Part shown: positions 5,473 through 50,001 of the stretch, in pieces
How positions within the stretch are numbered: position 1 is the stretch's first letter
Layout: the number at the start of each line of letters is the position of its first letter
Origin: a virus
Taxonomy: Duplodnaviria > Heunggongvirae > Uroviricota > Caudoviricetes
Virus record (IMG/VR): IMGVR_UViG_3300046507_000526
Coordinates: 70,193 to 134,192 of that record
Strand: one strand, 5' to 3'
Length of the DNA stretch: 64,000 bases
Notes under the pieces: generated by a model
What the model saw: only the letters and a program-made list of their open reading frames with translations
Databases searched by the model: none
What the model was told of the DNA's origin: nothing
Program-made: the position numbers and the translations under genes

Positions 5473-5484
5473 TTGGTAAATGAA

Positions 5485-6327
5485 ATGGACGACAACGTAC
5501 AATCTATTGAACAAATCCGTCACCTTGACTTTAACGCTCTCGGTGACCAGATGAAGATGTATGAGAAGAAGTACAACAGCGAATACCTGATGCCCGGTTT
5601 GCCGATTGTGATCAGATTCGATGGCAACGCTTTTCATACCTTTACGAAGCACATGCAAAAGCCTTACGACAAAGATCTTGCTCAGACTTTCCAGTGCACG
5701 GTCGATGATCTTATCAGGGAGTTGAATCCTGATCTTGCGTATCATCAAAGTGATGAGATCAGTCTGTTCTGGTTTAACCATGACACTACCAAGCAGTTGG
5801 CATTTGATGGCAAAGTACAGAAATGGCTCAGCGTATACGCAGCCAAATGTACAGCTATCTTTAATAGCTTCCTGCAAGGGTTCATGCCTGAAAGCTATTT
5901 GATGAGACCTGTGTTTGATGCCCGAGTTTTCCAGTTCCCACGCTGGGACTTTGCATACGACTATTTCGTGTGGCGTCAATGGGATGCTAGAAAGAATAGC
6001 GTAAGCATGGCTGCACATCACTACTTTACCAACTCAGAGCTTCACGGCGTGAATACTGCCGAGAAAATTGAGATGTTGCATAAGGTAGGCGTTAATTTTG
6101 CAGAGTATCCGGAATCTTTTAGACAAGGCACGTTCACCCGTAAGGTAAAACGTCTGATGCCTATTGATGACGAAACCTGGGCTCGTATCCCCGATAAGAA
6201 CAAACCTGAAAACAGATTTGTAGAACGTAGTTTCATCGGAGTAGTTAAAGGTGTACCTAAGCTTACTTCCCTGACAGTAAGCAACGGTAGTTTTCAAATC
6301 TTTCATTCTGACTATAGCGTTGCCTAA
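5485..6327 (+). CDS. Thg1-like protein (tRNA-His guanylyltransferase family 3'-5' nucleotidyltransferase)
   Basis: IVIRFDGNAFHTFTK and AYHQSDEISLFWF match Thg1 motifs vRiDGr.FhkF and gqSDEySFvf; FVWRQWDARKNS matches WRQ.D..NN; ORF track start 5473 is TTG, first ATG 5485. Confidence 0.8.
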   Translation: MDDNVQSIEQIRHLDFNALGDQMKMYEKKYNSEYLMPGLPIVIRFDGNAFHTFTKHMQKPYDKDLAQTFQCTVDDLIRELNPDLAYHQSDEISLFWFNHDTTKQLAFDGKVQKWLSVYAAKCTAIFNSFLQGFMPESYLMRPVFDARVFQFPRWDFAYDYFVWRQWDARKNSVSMAAHHYFTNSELHGVNTAEKIEMLHKVGVNFAEYPESFRQGTFTRKVKRLMPIDDETWARIPDKNKPENRFVERSFIGVVKGVPKLTSLTVSNGSFQIFHSDYSVA

Positions 6328-6353: not shown

Positions 6354-6424
6354 CGTACTACCAGGAAGATAGCCTGGTGGTACAATGTATTTTTAAGAGA
6401 GGTAACACAGTGGTAAAACTCGCC

Positions 6425-7666
6425 GACATGGCGCTAAACGACTTGTATGCAAAACCAAAGATTACAAGTACAGTAGAGGCGGTTATTCATGTTAAAGAAG
6501 ATTTCAGCAAAATCAGCCCGACGTATTGTGAACGGGTCTGTAAGCTGAAGTGCAAGAATTATGAATCTGTTTCTTTAGCCAAGAAAGAACTGGATATTCT
6601 GATTATTCAGGATCACGCTGCACCAGATGGTAAGTGGGATAAATACTCCGGTCAACAAGAGCAGCAAATGCAGGACATTATCTTCCATCTCTGTAAAGCA
6701 GCAGGGTTCGGAGATCTGAAGTATAAGCTGGTAGATTTATTGAAGTGCCCGCCAACGGAAGAGGACTTTCCTAAGGGTAAAGCGCCGACGGCAACGACGT
6801 TGATGAAATGTCGACCGTACTTGTGGCAGGAAATTGAATCGTGTAAACCTAAGATTATTATCAGCTTGGCCACTGCAGTGACTAAAGCGTTGGGTTACAA
6901 GAAACATAGTAATTCTGGGAACCGTGGTGAGTACGTGGATAATGTCGTAATCACGATCCATCCTAGGGCGTTGACAATGATTCGTCAGAACGCCTCAGGA
7001 GCATTTTGGGGTCAAGAGTTGTATGGGGTTATCCTTCGGGACTTCAAGAAGGCAGCAGCGATGGCCAGGGGTGAGTTGAATCCTCCGAAGCTGGAAGATG
7101 CGATCAAGTTTTACAAAGAGAATCGTATTCGAGTAGCAGAGTCGATTGAAGACGTAAAAGAGTACATGGGTATTCTTAATTCGTTACCAATATCTGCGAT
7201 TATTAGCGTAGATACTGAAACCGTAGGATTCGATGGGCTAGCCCCAGATGCAAAGCTATTGTGTATTCAATTTGGATATAGAGATCCGGTTGATAAAGTA
7301 GTTAAAGCATTGGTCGTTCCGTTGTGGCATAGAGAGAACACGTTCTATAGCGGTGATGAAGCTTGGACGTTGGTGAAACCGTTCTTAGAAGGTGAACAGC
7401 CGAAAGTTTTGCATAATGGCAAGTTCGATATACTGTATATATGGTTTACTACGAAGGTTAGAGTTAGAAATGTAGCGTTTGATACTCTTCTTCTTTTACA
7501 TAGTTTGGATTCAGGCGCACAAGGTACGTATTCGCTTAAAACTGCAGTTTGGGACATTGTTCCCTGGTCTGGGCTCGGAGGCTATGAAGATCTACTTCCC
7601 AAATTGACCAAAGCAAAAGATCTTGAAGAAGAAACAGAAGAAGAAGGTGAAGTAGATGGCGATTAA
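6425..7666 (+). CDS. DNA polymerase I-like, N-terminal polypeptide: UDG-like domain plus 3'-5' exonuclease Exo I and Exo II motifs
   Basis: IISVDTETVGFDG (Exo I) and KVLHNGKFDILYI (Exo II); N-terminal region with degenerate family-4 UDG-like layout (ITIHPRAL); ORF track begins at GTG 6377, first ATG 6425; acidic tail EEETEEEGEVDGD. Confidence 0.7.
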   Translation, partial: DMALNDLYAKPKITSTVEAVIHVKEDFSKISPTYCERVCKLKCKNYESVSLAKKELDILIIQDHAAPDGKWDKYSGQQEQQMQDIIFHLCKAAGFGDLKYKLVDLLKCPPTEEDFPKGKAPTATTLMKCRPYLWQEIESCKPKIIISLATAVTKALGYKKHSNSGNRGEYVDNVVITIHPRALTMIRQNASGAFWGQELYGVILRDFKKAAAMARGELNPPKLEDAIKFYKENRIRVAESIEDVKEYMGILNSLPISAIISVDTETVGFDGLAPDAKLLCIQFGYRDPVDKVVKALVVPLWHRENTFYSGDEAWTLVKPFLEGEQPKVLHNGKFDILYIWFTTKVRVRNVAFDTLLLLHSLDSGAQGTYSLKTAVWDIVPWSGLGGYEDLLPKLTKAKDLEEETEEEGEVDGD

Positions 7667-9362
7667 GCGTATAGCACCCAAGGCTAAGAAGCCAATTGCA
7701 GAAATGCTGGAAGAGAAGATTGTCGAAAAAGCAGTAGAAGCACCTGCAGAAAAGAAAGCGCGGAAGAAGAAAGAGCCAACCGTAGTTGAAGTGCCTGAAG
7801 AAAAGAAGATCTATCGTACATACGAAGATTATCCGTATGCTGACCTGATGACTTATGCTGGTATCGATAATATCGTAACGTCGGAAGTTCTAACAGCACT
7901 GTGGCCCGACTTGGTAAAGCCGCAAGAACTGTTGATGCCACAGAAGAACGGCCAGCCCAAGAAGATCAAGGCTCCTGGAATTATCAAGTCCGTTGTCGAG
8001 ACTGAAATGCTCTGTCATGAGTTCATTATCAATCTCGAAATTAACGGAATGCTTTATGACATAGCACGTAACCGTGCAATTTCGAAGCAGATGGTTGAGG
8101 AAGTAGCAGAGTTCGAAGAGAAGATCTTCAGCGCTATTGGGAAACGAATCAATCTTGATTCCGGTACAGAAGTAGGCAAGTACCTGTATGAAGAACTAGG
8201 GCTTGAGGCTCCATTCAAGACAAAGTCTGGTGACGATGCAACTGACGGTGCGGCACTTTTGACGCTGGCGGGTTTGAATCCGTTGGCTAACCAGTACACA
8301 GCTCCGGATCCAGCCAAGCAGTTTTTGGCGGATATGGCTAAGAGAAAGGATATTAATAGTGTCCATAACACCTTCATTAAAACGTATGTTGAAGACTTTG
8401 TTCGCTCGGATGGTCGCATTCATCCTAGCTACAACATGTTTGGTACTAGCAGCTTTCGGATCACTGGGGATAGCCCAAATCTTACACAGCTACCTAGGCC
8501 TAAGCACGGGTACAACGTACGTGAATGTTATACTGTGGCTGACGGGAATGTATTTATTGCATTTGACTTTAGCTCAGCGGAAGTAAAAATCCTCGGTGCA
8601 ATCTGCCGAGATAAGAACATGCTGAAGGCGATTTCTGAAGGTCTTGATTTTCACTCGTTCTCGGCAAGTGCAATGATGGGTGTGCCCTATGAAGAGTACA
8701 TTCATATTCTTGAAGACGATTCACATCCGCTGAAGAAAGAGTACAAGCGTATGCGACAAGTTGCAAAAGTTCTGACGTTCTCAATCCTTTATGGTTCGTC
8801 AGTAAACGGTATTGCAATGCAGTTGCAGTTAGAGAAGAGCGAAGCGGAACGTCTGGTTAATATGTACTTCAATGCGTATCCTGGTGTTAAGGACTATATT
8901 GATGAGTCGCATCAGATGGCACTGTTGAACCAGAAAGTATGGACACCTTTTGGTCAGTACAAGCACGAGTATGTTGCTCAGCCTGCGTTCAAGCGTACCG
9001 CAGCATATAACGCATCACTGCGCAATGCACAGAACGTTCGTATTCAAAGTGCAACGTCTACGCTGGGTCTGGTAACGTTTGCACATCTGGATCAGGCAAT
9101 TCAGAAGATTGACCCACGCTGCAAGAGTATCTGTACCGTGTATGACTCGGTGGAGTTCGAAGTGCCGCAGGAACGTGCAGCAGAAGTGATTGAAACAGCG
9201 TTCTATTACATGAACGAATGGCCTGTCCAACATTTCGATTGGCTTGATCTCCCGATTGGTGTTGAAGGTGAAATTGGATTTAACTGGGGTCAGGTGAAAG
9301 AAGTTAAGCCTGGCATTACGCAAGAAGCGGTAAATGAGATGTTAATGAAGATGAGAGCGTAA
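7656..9362 (+). CDS. DNA polymerase I-like, C-terminal polypeptide: Exo III motif plus family A polymerase domain
   Basis: YAGIDNIVT (Exo III, Y-x3-D); motif A FDFSSAEVKILG, motif B RMRQVAKVLTFSILYG, motif C TVYDSVEFEV; ATG overlaps upstream stop by 11 nt. Confidence 0.85.
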   Translation: MAIKRIAPKAKKPIAEMLEEKIVEKAVEAPAEKKARKKKEPTVVEVPEEKKIYRTYEDYPYADLMTYAGIDNIVTSEVLTALWPDLVKPQELLMPQKNGQPKKIKAPGIIKSVVETEMLCHEFIINLEINGMLYDIARNRAISKQMVEEVAEFEEKIFSAIGKRINLDSGTEVGKYLYEELGLEAPFKTKSGDDATDGAALLTLAGLNPLANQYTAPDPAKQFLADMAKRKDINSVHNTFIKTYVEDFVRSDGRIHPSYNMFGTSSFRITGDSPNLTQLPRPKHGYNVRECYTVADGNVFIAFDFSSAEVKILGAICRDKNMLKAISEGLDFHSFSASAMMGVPYEEYIHILEDDSHPLKKEYKRMRQVAKVLTFSILYGSSVNGIAMQLQLEKSEAERLVNMYFNAYPGVKDYIDESHQMALLNQKVWTPFGQYKHEYVAQPAFKRTAAYNASLRNAQNVRIQSATSTLGLVTFAHLDQAIQKIDPRCKSICTVYDSVEFEVPQERAAEVIETAFYYMNEWPVQHFDWLDLPIGVEGEIGFNWGQVKEVKPGITQEAVNEMLMKMRA

Positions 9363-10786: not shown

Positions 10787-11791
10787 ATGGGCGGTAACGC
10801 ACTTAAACTTGAAACGGTTCGGCTTGAGAAGAAGTATTACGACCACGTAGCTGCTGGAACCGCCGAAGTACTTCAAACTGCATTTCCCAAAGCTAAAGTC
10901 GCAGTCATTCCGTCGTACGGAGAAAAGGAAAGTTTTGGAGATCTAGACGTTTTGATCTCTGGAATTTCTATGGATAAACTTCGGGAGTTCGTAACTCAGA
11001 AACTGAACTCTCCTGAATACTTCCAGAATGGCAATGTCCTTTCGTTTGGTTTAGAGATTACTGCCTTGCTTATGAAGAAGGCAATTTTCCAGATTGATTT
11101 CATTACGATACCAGAGGAAGACTTCGACTTTGCCTTGAACTACTTTGCCTATAACGATCTCGGAAACCTTATCGGTCAAACAGCTCATGGCATTGGATTG
11201 AAATTTGGGCATGATGGGCTCTGGTATAAATACATTATCGAAACACAGTTGGTTAAAGAAATCTGTATCACGAAAGACTTCGATACAGCTCTTCGTATTC
11301 TCGGATATAGTGTCTCCGATTACAAACGTGGTTTTCAAACTCTTGATGATATCTTTACATACGCTGTAAGTAGTGAGAATTTCAGCACATGGAATTATCA
11401 ACTTGAAAATCGGAATCACGTAGGTCGTATTCGAGATAAGAAACGAAAGACCTATATGGCATTTCTGGAGTGGATGGAGGACAAGGGCCTCCCTGGTGAA
11501 AGACAGGATAGAGATCTCGGTCTTGTATTGGCTGACTACAATGTCCCAGCAGTATCTTTCGAATTCATGATTACAACGCTGAATCACTTCAAAGTTGAAC
11601 GTGTCAAGAAGAAGTTTAGCGGAGAGAAAGTATCAGAGTGGACTGGACTTACCGGAAAAGAACTCGGTCAATTCATGAATGAATATCGAGGTCTTGATAG
11701 AGAACTGTTTATAAATCAAATGGATTTAACACCTACTGATAAAGTAGAAAAAGAAGTTAAAGAATTCTTTGAAAAATGGAGTAAGAAATGA
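10787..11791 (+). CDS. putative nucleotidyltransferase (Pol-beta superfamily-like G-x8-DLD motif)
   Basis: PSYGEKESFGDLDVLI fits hG[GS]...DhDh signature of Pol-beta NTases; no closer family assignable by eye. Confidence 0.4.
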   Translation: MGGNALKLETVRLEKKYYDHVAAGTAEVLQTAFPKAKVAVIPSYGEKESFGDLDVLISGISMDKLREFVTQKLNSPEYFQNGNVLSFGLEITALLMKKAIFQIDFITIPEEDFDFALNYFAYNDLGNLIGQTAHGIGLKFGHDGLWYKYIIETQLVKEICITKDFDTALRILGYSVSDYKRGFQTLDDIFTYAVSSENFSTWNYQLENRNHVGRIRDKKRKTYMAFLEWMEDKGLPGERQDRDLGLVLADYNVPAVSFEFMITTLNHFKVERVKKKFSGEKVSEWTGLTGKELGQFMNEYRGLDRELFINQMDLTPTDKVEKEVKEFFEKWSKK

Positions 11792-11979
11792 CGCTCACTG
11801 TTCACTTACAATGGTGGATGATCCCCGCTCTCATCACCATTCTTAGTTATTGCTGGGCTTTCTTTTGGCCTTTCAAAGACAACACTGGATTTATGGCTGG
11901 GCTTGTAAACCTGTTTGCACTTATTCCAGCTTCAGGGGTTTCTCTTATTGCATGGATTATTGCGGGATTTATGAAATGA
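11788..11979 (+). CDS. small membrane protein
   Basis: 63 aa, hydrophobic, start overlaps upstream stop. Confidence 0.4.
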   Translation: MTLTVHLQWWMIPALITILSYCWAFFWPFKDNTGFMAGLVNLFALIPASGVSLIAWIIAGFMK

Positions 11980-12209
11980 CTTGCGATCATATAATTCAAC
12001 TACCCGATAAATATGTTACCTGGACAGACGATTGGACCGGCGAAGAAATGAGCGAATGGGAATACAATCGTACAGAGAGTGCATTAACCGATATTGATAC
12101 TCATCGAATGAAGTGCTCTAAATGTGGCAAGATTGAATACTACTCTGGAGCAGCTCGTGCTTATTATACTGAAGGTAAACGTTCACCTGGAATTAGGGGA
12201 TTAGAATGA
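11976..12209 (+). CDS. small Cys-containing protein (possible zinc ribbon)
   Basis: internal ATG of ORF 11850; CDH...CSKCGK. Confidence 0.35.
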   Translation: MTCDHIIQLPDKYVTWTDDWTGEEMSEWEYNRTESALTDIDTHRMKCSKCGKIEYYSGAARAYYTEGKRSPGIRGLE

Positions 12210-12471: not shown

Positions 12472-13773
12472 ATGGCCGTACTTACGATAGGTTCTTCGAA
12501 CCCTAAATTTTCCTGGATCATTTCCAAAAACCCTGCAACTATCCGGGAGAAAGGTGAGCCGTACAAAAAAGAGATCCGTCAAGGCAATGCATATGGCTGG
12601 TTTCTCACCAATGACCAGTCTTTTCGTCTCTGGTTTCGGGATAATCCTTTGACGTGTTCGTTTGCAGAAGGAATCAATGCGGAATTCGAGTATCTTGACC
12701 GCACTCGTTACGCTTCTCCTTACTTGCCGATTTCGTTGATCACGAACTGTCTGGCAACTGCATTCAAACAATCCCAAGAGGAAGATGAAGAAAAACCGTG
12801 GTCTGCATTTCTCACGACGACGGTAGAAATTCGAAGTGCTAGCATGCTTCGTCATCTCACAGAACACTTTAACGGGGCATTTGGATTTGACAAAGGGTAT
12901 AGCTTCACTGCTCAGAAATTAGCGGGCAACGCCTACGACGTCCATATTCAAGGCCCGAGCGTTCACAAGATGCTCAACGCTGCAATGGTTATTTTCCTGA
13001 TGTTCTGTGTTTCGACAAAAGGCATCTACATCAACCTCAAGGGGGATATCGTTGAGAAATACATTGCTGCAATTAACCGCATCAATGCTCCTTATTTTAT
13101 CCGGTATCTCTTTAAACGGAACGTGTTCTCAAATCGTGACACATTTCTTAAGAACAAATCGCTGCTTGATACGAACGAGATTTCGCTCTGGCACGGTGAC
13201 ACCCTTGCTCAGCGTAAAGAAGCTATCTTCCCCCACCTGGAAGGCGGAGCAATGCTTGTTGACATTGGGTGCGGTGAACTCAATTACACGCTCCCGCTCA
13301 GTTCGAAATATGAACAGGTCCTTGCGTTTGAAGCGGATGACGAACTCCGTGAAAACATGCTCGGAAAACTCAAAGGCCGAGAAGTCGAAAACGTTGTTCT
13401 CCGAGATGCTGCAACTCCCGAATCGATTGATGAGTGTTCCTCGCTCCTTAGCGGAGCAGACGTGCTCATCACAGAAGTTCTGGAGCACATTCCTCTTAAA
13501 GATGCAAGAGAGCTTGTTAATTCCGTTCTGAAAACTGAATTTAACAAGTTGGTTATCACGGTTCCGAACAAGGCTTTCAACGTGAACTATCTGATGGGAG
13601 AAGATGAGTTCCGTCACGATGATCACAAGTGGGAAATGACTCACGACGAATTTGAAGATTGGATTCTTCGTTCGAAATTCCCTGAATGGACTGAAGTTGA
13701 AATTAGAGGTATTGGCGATTCTGTCAACGGCACATTCACTTCCACGATGGTTGTTTTCTCCAAGAACAAATAA
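12472..13773 (+). CDS. hen1: Hen1-like RNA 3'-terminal 2'-O-methyltransferase (bacterial Hen1 architecture)
   Basis: C-terminal class I SAM MTase motifs MLVDIGCGELNY, VLAFEADDEL, DVLITEVLEHIP; about 430 aa with N-terminal non-MTase domain as in bacterial Hen1; directly upstream of pnkp. Confidence 0.7.
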   Translation: MAVLTIGSSNPKFSWIISKNPATIREKGEPYKKEIRQGNAYGWFLTNDQSFRLWFRDNPLTCSFAEGINAEFEYLDRTRYASPYLPISLITNCLATAFKQSQEEDEEKPWSAFLTTTVEIRSASMLRHLTEHFNGAFGFDKGYSFTAQKLAGNAYDVHIQGPSVHKMLNAAMVIFLMFCVSTKGIYINLKGDIVEKYIAAINRINAPYFIRYLFKRNVFSNRDTFLKNKSLLDTNEISLWHGDTLAQRKEAIFPHLEGGAMLVDIGCGELNYTLPLSSKYEQVLAFEADDELRENMLGKLKGREVENVVLRDAATPESIDECSSLLSGADVLITEVLEHIPLKDARELVNSVLKTEFNKLVITVPNKAFNVNYLMGEDEFRHDDHKWEMTHDEFEDWILRSKFPEWTEVEIRGIGDSVNGTFTSTMVVFSKNK

Positions 13774-13782
13774 GGACTTACC

Positions 13783-16203
13783 ATGAAAATTCAAACCAAG
13801 CTTCACACCGTGTTTATCCTGGTTGGCCCTTCTATGTGCGGCAAGTCGACGTTTTCCCTTGAGTTGCAGCACGCTCTAGGAGAACAGATGCGTAAAGCTG
13901 GACTGGGCGGTTCGTGTTCGATTCCCGTCATCAGTTCCGATGCGGAGCGAGAAAGTCTTTACGGCTACAAGAATCTCCATCGTTACGCACCTTTGATGAT
14001 GGAAGCCTCAGCTTCGGCCTTCGAAGTCCTTATGGCCAGGTACAAGGCAGCGATCTCGTTCCCGATCAATAGCGAATTCGTGATCATCGACACGACTGGC
14101 ATGAACGATACGTTCCGCAAGCAAATTCGTGAACTGGCCGAGGAAAAGGAATATCGTACTGAGTTGGTTACTTTCGAGTACTCCAACTATCAGTATTGGT
14201 CGGAATCCAATGCAGAAGAAAAGGTCATCGTCGAGTCGAGTGCCAAGCGATTCAAGCAGAGCGTCCTCCCGAATCTGGGGCGTAAAGATCACGACGGCTG
14301 TATCCGTGTGCGTGAACGTGACAAGAATTTCTGGCGTGACCTCGAAGTTGAGATTGAAGATCTGCAAAAGTACGCAGCTACTCAGTTGTATCTCAATAAG
14401 GACATGCAGATCAATATCATCGGAGATGTGCACGAACATGTCGAAGCGCTGGAAGAACTTCTTGTCAAACTCCCTGCTGGGAGCATCAACGTTATGGTGG
14501 GAGATTACATTGATAAGGGCAATGACACAGCAAATGCCATTGCTGCAGCTCGTAGGTTCCACGCTTCTGGTGGTATTATTGTTCACGGCAATCACGAGTC
14601 GTATGCTGTGAAACGTATCAAGGGAGAAATTAAGAACCCTGATCTGGAAATGGAAGCAAAGTACATGACTTCACTCAATGTACTGCTGAAAGATCCTGCG
14701 CTTGCAGCTGAGCTTGTAGATCTCTTCGACCTTTGTTCTGTACCTTTCCTCAAAATTCACGGTCATAACGTTCGTACCCTTTACGTTACCCATGCTCCTT
14801 GCGAGCAGAAATATCTGGGTAAGATGAGCCCTGCAGCACTTAAGGCTCAACGTAACCTGTACGGGGATCGTAAAGAAGACTACCGGAAGGCATATGACTT
14901 TATCTTTAAAGAAGCAGTTGGCAATTTCCCTTTGCATGTGTTTGGTCATGTTGCCCATAATGCTTCAAAGCTCGAATATCGGAACAAGATTTTTATCGAT
15001 ACCGGTGCTGTGTATGGCAATGCTCTTTCTGCTTTGTGCTATAAGGGAAACCGCTATTGGATCGAGTCTGTTAAGGCGACTGAAAAAGTAACGGTACATA
15101 AGGAACTTCAAAACTTCCTTACGCAACCTATTGCAGCTCCGGAAAAGCCCTTCAGCATCTACGACTATAAGTTGTCGCCTGATGATATGAAGTTCTTGAA
15201 GCGTACAATCGCAAACCGCGTTCAGTACATTTCCGGAACTATGGCACCAGCTCCGTCGACCAGCACTGAGATTGAAAGTCTGAAGGCTGGACTGGACTAT
15301 TTCCGTAACAAAGGCACGACGAAGGTAATTCTGGAACCGAAGTACATGGGTTCACGTTGCCAGATGTATCTGTTCCGTGGCCAACGCGAGAAATGCTTCC
15401 TGGTTTCCCGCAATGGTTTCAAGATTCGAATGAATGAAAAGCTTGACGCAATGCTTGACGCCGAGCTTGCGAAGTATGAAGCTTTGAGTCTTGATTTCTG
15501 GAATGAGTCAATGATTCTAGACGGCGAGCTTCTTCCTTGGACTACTCTCGGCGCTTCCTTGGTCGAAGAGCAATTCAAGGCGTATGAAGAGCTTGTACGT
15601 TACGAACTGGAAACTCTTGCAGGGGATGCGGAATTTGTGAAGCTTAACTTCAAGCAAAAGCCTGATTTATTAGCACGTCTGGCCGATCTGGCAACGTTCA
15701 AGAAAACCCTTGCAATCTACGGAGCAGAAGCCGATCCTTTCTATAAACCTTTTGCAATTCTGAAAATTGATAGCGAGGCCATGGGGAATAAATTTGAGGT
15801 TGCAGATTCGTTCGATACTCTCAACGAAGACGAATGTCGTGTCCTGCGTTTGGATAACGAATTCACTGACCAAACAGCGCAAGAATTCTTCGAAGCGTTG
15901 ACCGTAGATCGTAAAATGGAAGGCGTCGTCATTAAGCCTCTCGATGGTCCGGAAGATGTAGCACCGTACATGAAGGTTCGGAATGAGAATTATCTGACAC
16001 TTGTGTATGGCTACGACTATAAGAACCGTTACGAAGCTCTTTGCCGCCAGAAGAAGGTTGGTGGTAAACTACGTGTCTCCATTAAGGAGCATGATCTCGC
16101 AATGGCAATGCTTAATGTAGACAACGGCCCTGCCATGACTGAATTGATTGTGAAAATGATCTCACAACTCAATGAAGAAAAGGCTTTGGATCCTCGTCTG
16201 TAA
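13783..16203 (+). CDS. pnkp: bacterial-type polynucleotide kinase-phosphatase with C-terminal ligase-like adenylyltransferase domain (Pnkp)
   Basis: P-loop kinase VGPSMCGKST; calcineurin-like phosphoesterase GDVHEH...GDYIDKG...GNHES; C-terminal nucleotidyltransferase motif EPKYMGSRCQ; three-domain order matches bacterial Pnkp. Confidence 0.85.
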   Translation: MKIQTKLHTVFILVGPSMCGKSTFSLELQHALGEQMRKAGLGGSCSIPVISSDAERESLYGYKNLHRYAPLMMEASASAFEVLMARYKAAISFPINSEFVIIDTTGMNDTFRKQIRELAEEKEYRTELVTFEYSNYQYWSESNAEEKVIVESSAKRFKQSVLPNLGRKDHDGCIRVRERDKNFWRDLEVEIEDLQKYAATQLYLNKDMQINIIGDVHEHVEALEELLVKLPAGSINVMVGDYIDKGNDTANAIAAARRFHASGGIIVHGNHESYAVKRIKGEIKNPDLEMEAKYMTSLNVLLKDPALAAELVDLFDLCSVPFLKIHGHNVRTLYVTHAPCEQKYLGKMSPAALKAQRNLYGDRKEDYRKAYDFIFKEAVGNFPLHVFGHVAHNASKLEYRNKIFIDTGAVYGNALSALCYKGNRYWIESVKATEKVTVHKELQNFLTQPIAAPEKPFSIYDYKLSPDDMKFLKRTIANRVQYISGTMAPAPSTSTEIESLKAGLDYFRNKGTTKVILEPKYMGSRCQMYLFRGQREKCFLVSRNGFKIRMNEKLDAMLDAELAKYEALSLDFWNESMILDGELLPWTTLGASLVEEQFKAYEELVRYELETLAGDAEFVKLNFKQKPDLLARLADLATFKKTLAIYGAEADPFYKPFAILKIDSEAMGNKFEVADSFDTLNEDECRVLRLDNEFTDQTAQEFFEALTVDRKMEGVVIKPLDGPEDVAPYMKVRNENYLTLVYGYDYKNRYEALCRQKKVGGKLRVSIKEHDLAMAMLNVDNGPAMTELIVKMISQLNEEKALDPRL

Positions 16204-44914: not shown

Positions 44915-46309
44915 ATGAAAATCATCATCCAATCTCTAGCGAATGCGGAAGACAATGCAATGCTTCAAGCACTGTACTCCCGCAGCGCTGAATCTGTCAC
45001 GACCCATCTTGAAAGAGTTGAGAAAGCTGGGTCTGGCAAATTTATGGCCCAGTATTATCTGGGATATGGCCATGCGTCAATTGGCGATTGTGGAAGCGAC
45101 ACCGTCTTTATCGAAGGTGTTTCTATGCTTGCCGCAAAGGCCATCGAGGATAACCCTCTCTTTGTCGGTCAGGAATGCAGCTCCAGATATATCGACTTTA
45201 GCACGCAGGAATTTTATGTGCCCTGTGCTAAAGTGGAGATCATGGAGGAAATCCATCAACTGTACAACAAATTCCGGGCGTTCTACACTGCAAGCCTAGA
45301 GCCTTTGAAGGCTGCACTCCGTGAAAGATTTCCTAAGAAAGAAGATGACAAAGATACGGTTTACGAAAAAGCTATTGCTGCTAGGGCTTTTGATATCCTT
45401 CGTGGCTTTCTCCCTGCAGGTGCTACTACCAATGTGGCTTGGTCATTCCGACTTAGCAACGCTGATGAGCATCTCCGGTGGATGATGCATCACCCGTTGG
45501 AAGAGGTAAAACGAATCGGGGCATTGGTATATGAAATGCTTCATAAGAAATACCCTAATTCATTTCATAAAGACTACGCCGATGTTGTCCATGCGATGAA
45601 AGAACTGGACGATGGCGACGGGTTGCTTCTGGAAATAGAAGGTGACGCTACCTTCACGTATCTTTCTCAGATGGAGCATTTCTATACAGAGTTTAAAGAC
45701 TCTGGAAAGTTCAGTAAAATCGCCAGCGCCGAAGACGTATACACAGAAGTTGAATTCGACGAAGATTTGTCTATTCACCTCAAGTATTTCCAAGGGTATA
45801 AGGCTCGTCAGCGTAAAACTCGGCTTCCGAAGCATTCGCTTGTTCGCATTCAGAGCGTATATGTGTCTACGATGATTGACTTCGGCTCGTTCCGGGATAT
45901 TCAAAGGCACCGTAATGGATACTGCAACATGCCCATGTTGACATGTGACTACGGTATCCACCCGTGGTACTACGAAAATCTCACGGAAGAATTGCGGAAA
46001 GACGCATACATACTTCTGAATGAAATCGAGAAGGTGTATACTGAACTTCGCAAGACTGAAGAAGTTGTTCAGCTTCAGTACATTCTTCCTATGGGTTTCA
46101 TCGTACCAACGATGCTCAAGTATGATGTAGGTCAAGCTGTGTACGTGGCTGAGCTTCGTTCCGGAAAGACTGTCCATGCTACTCTACGTCCTGTTGCACA
46201 GAAACTTGCTGCTTCTCTTGAGGAACTCGGTATTCCGGTTTTTTATGACAAAGAGGAAAGTGACTGGACTGTGAAGCGCGGCGAGCAGGATATCGTTTCG
46301 AAGAGTTAA
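44915..46309 (+). CDS. possible tandem-domain ThyX-like (flavin-dependent thymidylate synthase fold) protein
   Basis: QECSSRYIDFSTQEFYVP resembles ThyX NELSGRYSKLSYEFYIP; second half has FRDIQRHRNGY (RHR) and ELRSGKTVHATLRPVAQ resembling ThyX LR.d.hAQwEI; assignment tentative. Confidence 0.4.
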   Translation: MKIIIQSLANAEDNAMLQALYSRSAESVTTHLERVEKAGSGKFMAQYYLGYGHASIGDCGSDTVFIEGVSMLAAKAIEDNPLFVGQECSSRYIDFSTQEFYVPCAKVEIMEEIHQLYNKFRAFYTASLEPLKAALRERFPKKEDDKDTVYEKAIAARAFDILRGFLPAGATTNVAWSFRLSNADEHLRWMMHHPLEEVKRIGALVYEMLHKKYPNSFHKDYADVVHAMKELDDGDGLLLEIEGDATFTYLSQMEHFYTEFKDSGKFSKIASAEDVYTEVEFDEDLSIHLKYFQGYKARQRKTRLPKHSLVRIQSVYVSTMIDFGSFRDIQRHRNGYCNMPMLTCDYGIHPWYYENLTEELRKDAYILLNEIEKVYTELRKTEEVVQLQYILPMGFIVPTMLKYDVGQAVYVAELRSGKTVHATLRPVAQKLAASLEELGIPVFYDKEESDWTVKRGEQDIVSKS

Positions 46310-46390: not shown

Positions 46391-46873
46391 ATGCAAGAAC
46401 TTGAAAACGGCCGCTTTACCATTATCCCTATCGAACTTCTCAGCCTTATTGTTGAAAAGACAGAAAATGGTTTGAAGCACATCGGAGCACCTGAAGATAT
46501 CTCGGTAGAAGATACGCTGAACGAAGTCCGGATTGCCATTAATTTTCAGATTCAGGATCAACGATCCAAAAGTGAAACTGTGAATCGCCTCTGGAAACGC
46601 TTTCAGGCTACGAAAGAATTCATGGATCCTCGTGAACTTCAGATGAATGAAGCTATGTGGGCTGGTTTCGACCATAAGAAGTACGAAGGCGATAAGACCA
46701 GAATTATTTCCGGACTTGAGAAGAGCATGTTCGAACTTACTGAAGTAATGCTGGATAACAATGTTCCTATCCATGCGCTTGATAGTATTGACGGCGAAGA
46801 CCCCGTAGAGATTCGTACGACTAGTCTTGAGGAAATCAAGAATATGTTTGACGGATTTGGCAAGAAAGAGTAA
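46391..46873 (+). CDS. hypothetical protein
   Basis: 160 aa with CAGGAG RBS. Confidence 0.5.
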   Translation: MQELENGRFTIIPIELLSLIVEKTENGLKHIGAPEDISVEDTLNEVRIAINFQIQDQRSKSETVNRLWKRFQATKEFMDPRELQMNEAMWAGFDHKKYEGDKTRIISGLEKSMFELTEVMLDNNVPIHALDSIDGEDPVEIRTTSLEEIKNMFDGFGKKE

Positions 46874-46884
46874 TATAGGTTTGT

Positions 46885-46915
46885 GCGGTAACAAAGAGTT
46901 GCCGCTTTCTTTTAC
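46885..46915 (+). terminator. rho-independent terminator
   Basis: GCGGTAACAAAGAGTTGCCGC plus T-run. Confidence 0.55.
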
Positions 46916-46931
46916 ATTCGAGAGGCTCGAA

Positions 46932-48014
46932 ATGTCACTAAAAACTGAAATATCCAAGTTGTACAAAGACGTTCCGTCGGAACGCGCAGAACCAGAATAT
47001 GAACTCGCAGTCGTGATTGGTAGATTTGAACCTCCGCACGTAGGCCATGGCATTCTTTTCAACAAAGCGTCCATGGTAGCAAAGAAGGTTCTTATCCTGA
47101 TCGGATCTTCCTATTCTCCACGTACGATAAAGAATCCATTTACGTTTGAAGAACGGGCTCAGATGATTTCTGAATCTCTACCTTCGGAGAACATCATTTG
47201 TATGCCTTTGGTGGATAACCTTTATTCGGATGACGATTGGGTTAACTCCGTCCAACGTAGCATTGCAGAATGTGTTCCTGCAGGTTCGAAGGTAGCCATC
47301 GTTGGCAACAAGAAAGACGAAAGTTCTTACTATCTCGATCTCTTTCCGCAATACAACTACGTAGCAGTGGATGAAGTGAAGCTCGGTTTCGATGCTACGA
47401 CTGTTCGTGAAGTTCTTTTTGAAAAGCCTGGTCTTGTAGATCTGCTTAAGAGCGTAGTGCCTGCTAATGTATTCGAATTCTTCAAAGAGTTCATGAAGAC
47501 GAGTGAGTATGTACGACTTCAGAAAGAGTGCTTCATGATCCGGAAATACAAAGAGGCGTGGTCAGTAGCTCCGTATGCACCTACGTTCGTAACAGTAGAT
47601 GCTGTTGTAAAGAAATCCGGACACATCTACCTAGTCAAACGTAAACATGCTCCGGGTCAAGGGCTTTGGGCACTCCCAGGGGGATTCGTAGAACCAAATG
47701 AAAGACTTAAAACTGCAGCGTTTCGTGAACTCATGGAAGAGACCAACATTGACCTTCCTCCTGGTCTGTTGCTTGGTTCTATGGGCGAAGGCGTTGTGTT
47801 TGATCATCCTGGGCGTAGCCTTCGTGGGCGCACTTTTTCGCATGCTTTCCTTTTTGACCTCGATAAGGCAGACAAGAAACCAGGCTTGCCGAAAGTGAAG
47901 GCAGCAGATGATGCATCGGACTGCAAGCCTTTCACGTATGATGAAATTCTGAGCATGCCCGAGCAGATTTTCGAAGATCACTTGTCCATCATCCGTAAGC
48001 TGGTGGGTATTTAA
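46932..48014 (+). CDS. natV: bifunctional NMN adenylyltransferase / Nudix hydrolase (NadM-Nudix, NatV-like)
   Basis: VIGRFEPPHVGH nucleotidyltransferase (H/T)xGH motif; C-terminal Nudix box LPGGFVEPNERLKTAAFRELMEETNI. Confidence 0.8.
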   Translation: MSLKTEISKLYKDVPSERAEPEYELAVVIGRFEPPHVGHGILFNKASMVAKKVLILIGSSYSPRTIKNPFTFEERAQMISESLPSENIICMPLVDNLYSDDDWVNSVQRSIAECVPAGSKVAIVGNKKDESSYYLDLFPQYNYVAVDEVKLGFDATTVREVLFEKPGLVDLLKSVVPANVFEFFKEFMKTSEYVRLQKECFMIRKYKEAWSVAPYAPTFVTVDAVVKKSGHIYLVKRKHAPGQGLWALPGGFVEPNERLKTAAFRELMEETNIDLPPGLLLGSMGEGVVFDHPGRSLRGRTFSHAFLFDLDKADKKPGLPKVKAADDASDCKPFTYDEILSMPEQIFEDHLSIIRKLVGI

Positions 48015-48609: not shown

Positions 48610-50001
48610 ATGAAAGCAAATAAAATCCTTATCGGGGATAGTTACAAATATTCTCATGCCCCTCAGTACCCCCTAGGTACAGTAGGCATGCAGTCGTACG
48701 TAGAAGCTCGGAAAAACAACAGTGGATTCCCGATTGATAAAGTTTCATTTTTCGGACTGCAGGCTTTTATTAAAGAATATTTGCTAGACCCAATCACTCG
48801 GGATGACCTCAAAGAAGCGGAAGAAGTAACAAGGGCACAGGGAATTCCTTTTAATAAACAGGGATTTCAAGATATCATCGAAAAACATGATGGATATTAC
48901 CCTGCCGTTATCAGTGCGGTACCTGAAGGTAGTCAAGTAGAAATCGGGAACGTGCTGCTCACTGCGGAGTCTACTGATAGCTTGCTTCCTTGGGTAGAAA
49001 GCTTTCTAGAAACCCCTTTGCTTCAAGCAGCTTGGTATGGAACTACCGTTGCTACGATTTCACGTCATTGTAAAGAAGTGATTTTTGAGTTTCTAAAAGA
49101 AACCAGTGATGTGCCTATCAACGAGATTCCCTGGAAATTAGCCGATTTTGGATACCGTGGAAATAGTTCTCAAGAAAGTGCGGCTATTGCAGGGGCGGCG
49201 CATTTGACTAACTTTCTCGGGACCGACACTATCAATGCAATGCTGTTTGCTCGCAGGTACTACGGCGCTTCGCTTGAGCATTTAGGGTATAGCGTCCCTG
49301 CCAGCGAACACTCCACTACTACTAGTTGGGGCAAAGATGGGGAACGTGATTTTTACAGTCACGCCATTAAAACTTATGCAGGGAAATACCCGATTGTCAG
49401 TCTAGTAGCGGACTCATATGATATCGATAACTCTATTCAGAATATTTTTGGTAAAGACCTGAAAGAACAGATCGTAAACTGCGGATCTACCGTAGTTATT
49501 CGATTGGACAGCGGAGAACCTGTGGAAGGAGTTACCAAGGCACTTGGATATCTTGACGCAGCATTCGGATCAGTTCCAAATAGTAGGGGGTTTAAAGTCC
49601 TCAAAAACGTACGTGTACTTCAAGGAGACGGCGTAAATCCTACCTCTATTAAGAGAATTCTTACGGCTATGAAGTTGCAAGGCTTTAGCGCGGAAAATAT
49701 CGTGTTCGGTATGGGGGGTGGGTTACATTCCGCGTGGGATAGAGACACTTTTAGTTTTGCAATGAAGTGTTCCGCTATCAACGTAGAGGGTCAGTGGAGA
49801 GATGTGTATAAAGACCCTAAAGCTGGCGGTAAGACAAGTAAGCGGGGCAGACTTGCGCTTATTGAAGACGATGGTAAACTGGTGACCATCCGAGAAGATG
49901 CTTTGATGGGTCGAACTAGTCTTCTGGAACCTGTGTACGCCAATGGCGTTCTTATCCGTGACCAGTCGTTTAACGATGTTCGCAGGCTGGCTGCTATCTA
50001 A
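48610..50001 (+). CDS. nadV: nicotinamide phosphoribosyltransferase (Nampt/NadV)
   Basis: LIGDSYKYSH and ADFGYRGNSSQESAAIAGAAH match Nampt motifs. Confidence 0.85.
   Translation: MKANKILIGDSYKYSHAPQYPLGTVGMQSYVEARKNNSGFPIDKVSFFGLQAFIKEYLLDPITRDDLKEAEEVTRAQGIPFNKQGFQDIIEKHDGYYPAVISAVPEGSQVEIGNVLLTAESTDSLLPWVESFLETPLLQAAWYGTTVATISRHCKEVIFEFLKETSDVPINEIPWKLADFGYRGNSSQESAAIAGAAHLTNFLGTDTINAMLFARRYYGASLEHLGYSVPASEHSTTTSWGKDGERDFYSHAIKTYAGKYPIVSLVADSYDIDNSIQNIFGKDLKEQIVNCGSTVVIRLDSGEPVEGVTKALGYLDAAFGSVPNSRGFKVLKNVRVLQGDGVNPTSIKRILTAMKLQGFSAENIVFGMGGGLHSAWDRDTFSFAMKCSAINVEGQWRDVYKDPKAGGKTSKRGRLALIEDDGKLVTIREDALMGRTSLLEPVYANGVLIRDQSFNDVRRLAAI

Follow-up and report, generated by a model that had tools for sequence, protein, structure and literature searches.

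A UDG-PolA replicase probably encoded as two genes in a phage clade, with the proofreading exonuclease motifs divided between the two chains

The window, meaning the whole 64,000-nucleotide stretch of phage DNA that was analysed, contains two overlapping genes on the plus strand, part 1 (ORF1, 429 aa counted from the first GTG) and part 2 (ORF2, 568 aa), with the following features:

6377..7666, plus strand: part 1 gene, comprising the UDG-like domain, the N-terminal three-quarters or so of the 3'-5' exonuclease domain and an acidic tail
6398..6403, plus strand: Shine-Dalgarno-like AGAGGT, 6 nt upstream of GTG 6410
6431..7081, plus strand: family-4-like UDG domain, ORF1 residues ~19-235
6524-6541, plus strand: conserved cysteines C51/C55
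6602-6631, plus strand: position of UDG motif A, reading IIQDHAAPDG
6740-6754, plus strand: conserved cysteine C124
6803-6817, plus strand: conserved cysteine C145
6950-6973, plus strand: UDG motif B-like ITIHPRAL
6977-7000, plus strand: clade-specific MIRQNASG loop, after motif B
7148..7609, plus strand: N-terminal portion of the 3'-5' exonuclease domain (DEDD type), made up of the beta-sheet core and the first helices, ORF1 residues ~258-411
7610..7666, plus strand: part 1 C-terminal tail, acidic and disordered (residues 412-429), with the TAA
7645..7650, plus strand: Shine-Dalgarno-like AGGTGA, 5 nt upstream of the part 2 ATG, within the sequence coding for the part 1 tail
7653..7666, plus strand: junction TAG-ATG-GCG-ATT-AA, with the stop in the part 2 frame, the part 2 start, the 11-nt overlap and the part 1 TAA
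7656..9362, plus strand: part 2 gene, comprising a basic leader, the C-terminal exonuclease helices with Exo III and the complete polymerase domain
7656..7811, plus strand: disordered N-terminal leader of part 2 (residues 1-52), rich in Lys/Glu and net basic
7818..7916, plus strand: C-terminal exonuclease piece on part 2, with the conserved TYEDYP (7818-7835) and helix 61-87
8073..9293, plus strand: family A polymerase domain (thumb, palm and fingers)
8565-8594, plus strand: polymerase motif A DFSSAEVKIL, ORF2 residues 304-313
8754-8795, plus strand: polymerase motif B RQVAKVLTFSILYG, ORF2 residues 367-380
9138-9161, plus strand: polymerase motif C VYDSVEFE, ORF2 residues 495-502

The residue numbers of ORF1 refer to the longest ORF, counted from the first GTG at 6377. 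The true start is probably the GTG at 6410, giving a protein of 418 aa; the corresponding codon is where the homologues P0001 and P0002 start, and the disorder of residues 1-12 in the AF2 model fits this start. At the other end, ORF1 closes with DLEEETEEEGEVDGD-TAA (stop codon 7664-7666), and the ATG of ATGGCGATTAA, 8 nt before this stop codon, opens ORF2, so that the ORFs overlap by 11 nt and ORF2 is read in the +1 frame with respect to ORF1. Going upstream, the frame of ORF2 meets its first stop in the TAG at 7653-7655, immediately 5' of the ATG; hence, both frames are open together for only 11 nt. Purine runs of the Shine-Dalgarno type are found at the equivalent place in the related loci L007, L008, and L009. 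Part 2 would start from its own Shine-Dalgarno sequence and ATG near the stop of part 1, and the coupled translation may yield the two chains in roughly equal amounts. Such coupling, proposed in a sequence-only reading of this DNA, fits the stop/start overlaps of the window and about ten relatives, but is no general requirement of the system.

The N-terminal domain of part 1 resembles the family-4 UDGs. ORF1 matches the UDG family PF03167 of Pfam over residues 90-206 (36.5 bits, cutoff 24.3), the profile of the part 1 family matches the family-4 UDGs 4zbx, 1vk2, and 1ui0 of the PDB with E-values of 2e-11 to 1e-6, and the ORF1 model superposes in Foldseek on family-4 UDGs and UdgX with target-normalised TM-scores of 0.56-0.63; the alpha/beta fold of family 4 is thus recovered by Pfam, profile, and Foldseek alike. 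The catalytic GE[AG]PG of family 4 is absent in the window, and the aligned position varies across the clade. The earlier reading of a degenerate family-4 UDG fold is supported. In motif B, the histidine of HPR (H195) is invariant in close homologues, but distant clade members have D, N, E, or V in its place. The cysteines C51, C55, C124, and C145 are invariant or nearly so among homologues, and C124 and C145 align with the KCRP and C-x-PY cysteines of solved family-4 UDGs. The domain keeps the fold and appears to keep four cysteines of the Fe-S type for a putative cluster and the motif B histidine; a role in sensing DNA or bases or in processivity is more probable for it than canonical uracil glycosylase activity.

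The 3'-5' exonuclease domain is distributed over both chains. Part 1 contains Exo I (DTET, residues 279-282, nt 7211-7222) and Exo II (HNGKFD, residues 346-351, nt 7412-7429), and its match to DNA_pol_A_exo1 in Pfam (29.2 bits, cutoff 23.6) covers only positions 11-105 of the 173 in the profile. The profile of the part 1 family aligns to positions 16-132 of the Klenow chain, including Exo I and Exo II, and the ORF1 model superposes on Klenow over 152 columns with an rmsd of 2.5 Å in Foldseek. The acidic residues D279, E281, and D351 are invariant in the homologue alignments. Exo III (YAGIDNIVT, residues 67-75, nt 7854-7880) is located on part 2, with the core YAGID at 7854-7868 containing Y67 and D71. 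ORF2 residues 46-547 align to positions 153-604 of the Klenow chain, and Y67 falls at chain position 174, corresponding to Y497, by coordinate arithmetic that assumes no gap before the motif. The Exo III-bearing helix 61-87 is confident in the AF2 model, and all part 2 sequences examined retain Y[AG]G[ILV]D. All three DEDD motifs are present and conserved, spread over two polypeptides, and neither half holds a complete DEDD fold according to Pfam, AF2, and Foldseek.

Downstream of Exo III, ORF2 matches DNA_pol_A (PF00476) of Pfam over residues 140-546 with 209.6 bits (cutoff 34.3), the Taq large fragment with E=1.7e-41 in a phmmer search of the PDB, and, as a model, the Bst and Taq large fragments with a TM-score of ~0.68 in Foldseek. 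With motifs A, B, and C all lying in the polymerase domain, ORF2 is a predicted family A polymerase, and its motif C contains YDS in place of the usual HDE. The gene contents given in the sequence-only reading, namely Exo I, Exo II, the acidic tail, and TAA on ORF1, and another frame, the 11-nt overlap, the Lys/Glu-rich leader, Exo III, and the three polymerase motifs on ORF2, are all found in the sequence, and the division of the exonuclease residues between two chains is borne out by their conservation on both.

The two parts were modelled separately with AF2, and both models are confident, with a mean pLDDT of 87.4 and a pTM of 0.83 for part 1, and 86.3 and 0.81 for part 2, disorder being limited to the new termini. 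The tail of part 1 (residues 412-429) and the leader of part 2 (residues 1-52) both show a pLDDT <50. The last 18 residues of part 1 include 10 D/E and 2 K/R, and the leader includes 15 K/R and 10 D/E. Of 40 distinct related loci, 38 have a tail with a net acidic charge; exceptions to the charge pattern include a tail of just 2 residues in L071, a basic tail in L052, and several short or neutral leaders. The charge complementarity of tail and leader across the related loci is only a trend.

Megablast finds no match to the region among 50,697 phage records, and relatives are found at the protein level only. The best 120 homologue clusters of ORF1, from independent projects, are all 289-498 aa long, and PF00476 is present in none of them. 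A search of the 50%-identity library gives 37 hits with E<=1e-30, of which P0145 (858 aa) and P0150 (717 aa) are the only ones longer than 600 aa, and hits at about 30% identity are mostly single-chain UDG-PolAs of 650-1500 aa; a UDG domain fused to exonuclease and polymerase in one chain thus exists in P0145, P0150, and the remote hits, but not in the window. Across about 40 related loci, the cut lies in the same surface loop, between the conserved GLGGYEDxL and TYEDFP...YAGID. The spacing of the halves is a 1-14 nt overlap, 0.3-1.3 kb, or >4 kb, and all three frame relations occur. The 11-nt junction architecture of the window recurs in L007 and L008, and other overlaps measure 8 nt (L030), 14 nt (L009), 4 nt (L051 and L042), and 1 nt (L069). 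In Vibrio phage D69 and others, the halves are 0.3-1.3 kb apart with unrelated ORFs between them, and the distance reaches ~8 kb in Salmonella phage Arash and 9 kb in L054. Most of the inserted ORFs have no Pfam family; on inspection only, the insert of L040 gives the impression of an HNH/AP2-type homing endonuclease. Both halves are found in one genome wherever enough sequence is available. The clade consists of phages of roughly 170-190 kb, with Arash and the Vibrio phages D69, D148, and D181 as cultured members. The fused relative P0145 (the same as L064/L066/L067) reads through the cut as GLGGYEDELGKLPAGKTYEDFPLDKLQIYAGID, without tail and without leader, and the split forms carry about 70 extra residues in comparison. 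The alignment rows for ORF2 come from a word-indexed search with P0145 and include few clade members, generic PolA words having dominated the candidates. In a neighbour-joining tree, a crude method, the fused P0145 and P0150 fall inside the split clade, a placement that would mean re-fusion or repeated fission; the tree is not relied on.

The comparison with homologous phage polymerases therefore recovers the same split, in the best 120 clusters and in about 40 loci, and supports the earlier view that two separate polypeptides are made. This conserved cut bears directly on the two alternatives that had been raised with that view, a sequencing or assembly indel that artificially breaks one continuous polA gene, and a programmed frameshift. 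The +1 offset and the overlap of the ORFs are what a single-base error would give; however, the break is common to all of the best 120 clusters from independent projects, about 40 loci show varied frame relations and spacings, a stop closes each frame at the junction (TAG ahead of the ATG, TAA for ORF1), part 2 has its own Shine-Dalgarno sequence and ATG, and the tail and leader of about 70 residues are missing from the fused relative. The indel is effectively refuted.

Programmed +1 frameshifting or bypassing would produce a single fused UDG-exonuclease-polymerase, alone or beside the separate products, and the presence of part 2 in the +1 frame in five adjacent loci (window, L006, L007, L008, and L009) agrees with it, although this shared frame is explained by inheritance of one junction architecture. 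On inspection, no slippery or prfB-like site is seen in the 11 doubly open nucleotides, and relatives with frame relation 0 or +2, with intervening genes, or with a gap of 4-9 kb share the same cut. Frameshifting cannot make a fusion where the halves are kilobases apart or separated by genes, and it is considered very improbable for the window.

Joining of the halves after transcription or translation, through a group I or II intron, trans-splicing, or a split intein, is suggested by the intron-rich polymerase genes of the relatives, in which Rfam places group I introns (RF00028) at the motif B site of part 2 (Arash, D69, L034, and L057). Rfam finds none, however, between part 1 and part 2 in D69, L034, L040, L057, L058, and L060; the window has no Rfam match and, since its ORFs overlap, no room for an intron at the junction. 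With 2-60 aa, the tail and the leader fall short of the length of a split intein; they vary strongly, disorder is predicted for them, and on inspection the conserved Cys/Ser and His-Asn junction residues are not seen in them. Such joining can be given hardly any credence.

The data are most probably explained by a genuine, inherited fission of a SPO1-type UDG-PolA replicase into two separately translated subunits that reassemble a composite exonuclease site. Part 1 would supply the UDG-like domain and the DEDD beta-sheet core with Exo I and Exo II, and part 2 would supply the last exonuclease helices with Exo III and the whole polymerase domain. We infer that the two chains physically dock and thereby rebuild one exonuclease domain, in which Asp279, Glu281, and Asp351 of part 1 would be combined with Tyr67 and Asp71 of part 2. 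The UDG-like domain may pack against the exonuclease and the polymerase as in single-chain UDG-PolAs. More speculatively, the acidic tail and the basic leader would represent scars of the fission and may aid electrostatic pairing of the halves.

The halves might instead not reassemble, part 1 working on its own, for example in DNA binding or repair as a UDG-like factor whose half-exonuclease is dead, and part 2 being a polymerase that lacks proofreading. The genes are far apart in several relatives and could be expressed at different times, the Arash homologue of part 1 (gp168) is annotated as 'uracil DNA glycosylase' and was detected by mass spectrometry as a separate protein (PMC10585845), a detection that also fits the fission with reassembly, and PolAs with only the last exonuclease helices exist, such as CCPol (PMC10201439). 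Against this, Exo I, Exo II, and the Tyr and Asp of Exo III are strictly conserved in the clade down to about 35% identity, which is not expected of two dead half-sites; furthermore, the complete DEDD fold is missing from either half, and the halves accompany each other in every genome with enough sequence. Separation without reassembly is accordingly regarded as quite unlikely.

The fission may also be functional rather than neutral, with proofreading and base-sensing set independently of polymerisation, a reading that is unlikely, if slightly less so than two unassembled halves. Early in infection, or on templates that are modified or damaged, part 2 alone could then, for example, polymerise without proofreading, and docking of part 1, with the charged tails as the docking device, would switch editing on. 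If true, the exonuclease site of a family A replicase would be both composite and regulated. The unlinked halves of the relatives make separate or additional roles for each half possible.

Returning to the inherited fission with reassembly, the arrangement is not confined to one contig and defines a large phage clade. The public labels of the halves are 'uracil DNA glycosylase', 'DNA polymerase nu', 'DNA polymerase theta', or 'hypothetical', so that replication modules are misread and surveys with polA as a marker see a truncated enzyme. Since split and fused relatives both exist, they offer a natural system for testing how far an editing domain tolerates breakage, and the split PolA may be a natural model from which split polymerases could be engineered.

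Among known systems, the closest are the published UDG-PolA fusions, including gp31 of Bacillus phage SPO1 and its relatives and the N4-like cluster #17 (Czernecki et al. 2023, PMC10201439). The window proteins match SPO1-like polymerases at about 25% identity, and their nearest relatives are SPO1-like, not T7-like. The order of a family-4-type UDG, a DEDD exonuclease, and PolA is shared with the SPO1-type enzymes, and a UDG domain without the canonical catalytic motif A with some UDG-PolAs (PMC10201439). SPO1 gp31 is, however, one chain interrupted only by an intron, whereas the window has two genes for the enzyme, with the cut lying within the exonuclease domain. The UDG-PolA architecture, already published for SPO1-like and N4-like polymerases, is shared in the domain order but not in the chain, which in the window is broken after Exo II. 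The invariant MIRQNASG insertion after motif B is also the clade's own, unlike in other UDG-PolAs.

In the case of the S-SBP1-like cyanopodoviruses, a T7-type PolA is split, with loose new termini and predicted reassembly (PMC10201439), and, as in the window, the stop of an upstream gene bearing the exonuclease overlaps the start of the polymerase gene downstream. The S-SBP1 exonuclease gene (L075, 2274-2789) holds Exo I, Exo II, and Exo III (YCIQD); hence, its cut lies at the boundary between exonuclease and polymerase, and the exonuclease site is on one chain. In the window, by contrast, the cut precedes Exo III, which is on the polymerase chain. S-SBP1 also belongs to a different, T7-like PolA subfamily without a UDG domain, and its genes are adjacent, whereas the halves of the window's relatives are often unlinked. 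In the literature searched, the S-SBP1-like split is the only published PolA fission found, and no earlier PolA with a cut through the proofreading domain and a DEDD site from two polypeptides was found; the present case would be the second, independent fission of a family A replicase.

Part 2 also resembles CCPol of staphylococcal mobile elements in being a PolA chain that keeps only the last helices of the exonuclease domain. For CCPol, no complementary exonuclease fragment was found and MP is the proposed partner (PMC10201439), whereas the window has the missing piece in part 1, whose catalytic residues are conserved. An experimentally validated precedent for a composite site is the split PolB of the chimallivirus PhiKZ, a family B and not a family A enzyme, in which DNAP-N and DNAP-C, encoded by two unlinked genes, form a stable 1:1 complex seen by cryo-EM, and the polymerase active site is built from both chains, with motif A on one and motif C on the other (PMC13648687). 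In PhiKZ, the polymerase site is divided and the exonuclease site lies wholly on DNAP-N, whereas in the window it is the exonuclease site that is divided.

The split polymerase of the window consists of two overlapping genes and carries every motif quoted in the sequence-only reading at its implied position. The ORF calls and motif locations are as follows.

Window 6377–7666, + strand: ORF1 (part 1)
Window 7656–9362, + strand: ORF2 (part 2)
ORF1 residues 279–282, + strand: Exo I, DTET
ORF1 residues 346–351, + strand: Exo II, HNGKFD
ORF2 residues 67–75, + strand: Exo III, YAGIDNIVT
ORF2 residues 304–313, + strand: polymerase motif A
ORF2 residues 367–380, + strand: polymerase motif B
ORF2 residues 495–502 (window 9138–9161), + strand: polymerase motif C, VYDSVEFE

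In Pfam, ORF1 matches UDG (36.5 bits, cutoff 24.3) and the PolA exonuclease profile only in its first part (positions 11–105 of 173), and ORF2 matches DNA_pol_A with 209.6 bits. The ORF1 family profile aligns with solved family-4 UDGs (E = 2e-11) and also with Klenow chain positions 16–132, the Exo I and Exo II region; ORF2 residues 46–547 align with Klenow chain positions 153–604. The cut therefore divides the exonuclease domain after Exo II and before Exo III, in agreement with the division of the exonuclease motifs first read from the sequence. By coordinate arithmetic, assuming a gap-free alignment before the motif, Y67 and D71 of ORF2 correspond to Klenow Y497 and D501 of Exo III. D279, E281 and D351 of part 1 are invariant across homologues, and the Exo III Tyr and Asp are present in every part 2, with Exo I and Exo II kept on the other chain; neither chain holds a complete DEDD fold. 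Motif C reads Y-D-S where Klenow and Taq carry H-D-E; the fused relative P0145 also has YDS, so this is a clade feature.

At the junction, ORF1 ends in GAA GTA GAT GGC GAT TAA, and ORF2 starts at the ATG within TAG-ATG-GCG-ATT-AAG, giving the 11-nt overlap and change of frame (+1) already noticed. A TAG (7653–7655) lies directly 5' of this ATG in the ORF2 frame, and the hexamer AGGTGA (7645–7650), which matches the extended Shine–Dalgarno consensus from the 16S 3' end, is located 5 nt upstream of it. The real start of ORF1 is likely GTG 6410, because AGAGGT precedes it, homologues begin there and residues 1–12 are disordered in the predicted model. The two genes each possess independent initiation signals. 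Just upstream of the probable part 1 start, a perfect 6-bp inverted repeat (ACCAGG-n7-CCTGGT, window 6360–6378) overlaps the GTG that opens the long form of ORF1 and may fold into a small hairpin that separates the Thg1-like gene from the polymerase gene.

The same cut is inherited across relatives. The 120 homologue clusters closest to ORF1, drawn from a 5.8-billion-protein collection, are 289–498 aa long and none contains a polymerase domain. Among 50%-identity representatives scanned exhaustively with HMMER, only two of the 37 matches with E ≤ 1e-30 exceed 600 aa, and remoter matches (~30% identity) are mostly single-chain UDG-exonuclease-polymerases (UDG-PolAs) of 650–1500 aa. Both halves were mapped in ~70 related loci, ~40 of them distinct close relatives; in every case the conserved GLGGYEDxL precedes the cut and the conserved TYEDFP..YAGID follows it. 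Stop and start overlap by 1–14 nt in one class: 11 nt in L007 and L008, the same design as the window, 8 nt in L030, 14 nt in L009, an ATGA overlap in L051 and L042, and 1 nt in L069. The halves are 0.3–1.3 kb apart, with unrelated ORFs between them, in Vibrio phage D69, L034, L038, L040, L053, L055, L057, L058 and L060, and more than 4 kb apart in Salmonella phage Arash (~8 kb), L054 (9 kb), L068 (4.2 kb) and L071 (5.3 kb). Each of the three frame relations is represented. A sequencing error or a programmed frameshift had been offered as alternatives to two genuine chains; since the same cut recurs with varied overlaps, distances and frames, the split is on sequence evidence neither artefact nor frameshift, and the two-chain interpretation is supported.

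In relatives, the interval between the halves is a hotspot for insertions. In L053 it contains a DHH/DHHA1 phosphoesterase (11268–12185, Pfam); judged by eye, a PrkA/YeaH/SpoVR-like trio lies there in L071 (1536–6365), a possible HNH/AP2-type endonuclease in L040 (3351–3938), and mutually similar ORFs of 167–186 aa in D69 (L002 6184–6744) and L057 (5623–6126). Rfam found no group I intron at the junction in relatives with separated halves. Their part 2 genes contain such introns elsewhere, mainly at motif B after K-x-x-T-F: Arash (L003 3916–4187), D69 (L004 2402–2920, with an HNH-like ORF inside, by eye), L034 (4132–4352) and L057 (7319–7529 and 7835–8520). No intron was found by Rfam in the window, and its ORF2 is intron-free. 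Judged by inspection, the shortness, variability and disorder of the tail of part 1 and the leader of part 2 rule out split-intein halves.

AlphaFold2 with family alignments gave confident models for ORF1 (mean pLDDT 87.4, pTM 0.83; disordered residues 1–12 and 412–429) and ORF2 (86.3 and 0.81; disordered residues 1–52). In Foldseek, the ORF1 model matches the Klenow exonuclease domain over 152 columns (rmsd 2.5 Å) and family-4 UDG/UdgX structures (target-normalised TM ~0.6), and the ORF2 model matches the Bst and Taq large fragments (TM ~0.68), with Y67 and D71 on helix 61–87. Since the models are confident, with disorder at the new termini, each of these termini is predicted to be a flexible end located in a loop, which is also how the fission in S-SBP1 is described (PMC10201439).

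Fused relatives exist. The P0145 lineage (L064/L066/L067; 858 aa, 36–40% identity) reads ...GLGGYEDELGKLPAGKTYEDFPLDKLQIYAGID... across the join, and P0150 is also fused as far as the motif B intron site. Compared with these, split forms carry an extra tail at the C-terminus of part 1, with a net acidic charge at 38 of the 40 distinct loci (10 D/E and 2 K/R in the window), and an extra N-terminal leader on part 2, usually basic (52 residues in the window, 15 K/R and 10 D/E). In a crude NJ tree, P0145 and P0150 fall within a split subclade with P0147, P0149, P0154 and L071, which suggests that a split gene fused again or that fission struck this loop more than once.

The UDG fold of the N-terminal domain is confirmed by profile, Pfam and Foldseek. 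At the position of motif A (GE[AG]PG) the window has IIQDHAAPDG, variable across the clade; the window keeps the motif B His, which is not universal among clade members. Four cysteines are conserved at the family-4 Fe-S positions, and an invariant clade-specific loop, MIRQNASG, comes directly after motif B in the chain. These features fit the degenerate family-4 UDG proposed earlier. UDG domains of UDG-PolAs have been proposed as possible sensors or processivity modules (PMC10201439), a role that by analogy would fit here. In L030 (5303–6517), the closest complete relative (76–80% identity), a single in-frame stop (CAPN*EDFPKG) interrupts this domain; it is a sequencing error of the metagenome or else a genuine nonsense/recoding event.

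Elsewhere, the window is unusually rich in genes for RNA repair and quality control (5473–6327, 12472–16203, 22379–43811, 61700–63322). They include a Thg1-like tRNA-His guanylyltransferase (96.7 bits), the pair formed by a bacterial-type Hen1 (N-terminal domain, 170 bits) and a Pnkp kinase/phosphatase/ligase, a Ro60/TROVE-vWA protein (189 and 135 bits) and 20 tRNA genes; Rfam gave no Y RNA above its gathering threshold. At 44915–46309, 46827–48014 and 48610–50001 the window encodes a 464-aa ThyX-like protein, with Thy1 only at residues 14–215 and a long C-terminal extension, and two proteins of NAD salvage (NMNAT/NUDIX and NAMPT) that Arash has as well.

We infer that the two chains dock into a single exonuclease domain whose active site is a composite of both, with the UDG-like domain packing against the exonuclease and polymerase as in single-chain UDG-PolAs. 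The overlapping stop and start would couple translation of both parts in the window; more speculatively, tail and leader might help assembly because they are oppositely charged.

Public annotations of Arash and D69 miss the split architecture. In Arash (OQ632216), gp168 (L001 4941–6287) was named 'uracil DNA glycosylase' and detected by mass spectrometry, with the split unmentioned (PMC10585845); its polymerase exons, gp154 and gp152 (L003 2980–4807), are 'DNA polymerase nu' and 'DNA polymerase theta' in GenBank. In D69 (OZ195729, L002), the last polymerase exon stands under 'hypothetical protein' calls. The separate 'nu', 'theta' and 'hypothetical' annotations arise because group I introns interrupt part 2. 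The literature searched contained no description of this split clade. The split is conserved, widespread, mis-annotated and easily tested.

Split phage polymerases have precedents. UDG-PolAs are described in SPO1, SP-10 and N4-like phages, and the S-SBP1-like fission of T7-like PolAs was termed the first seen in PolAs (Czernecki et al. 2023, PMC10201439). The S-SBP1 exo gene product, checked directly, holds Exo I, Exo II and Exo III (YCIQD), so its cut is at a domain boundary, whereas the window cut is within the proofreading domain. In PhiKZ PolB, the polymerase site is common to two subunits (PMC13648687), an experimental precedent for a composite active site, whereas here we infer reassembly. 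UDG-PolAs and split PolAs being already known, the novelty is the cut through the proofreading domain and the frequent unlinking of the halves.
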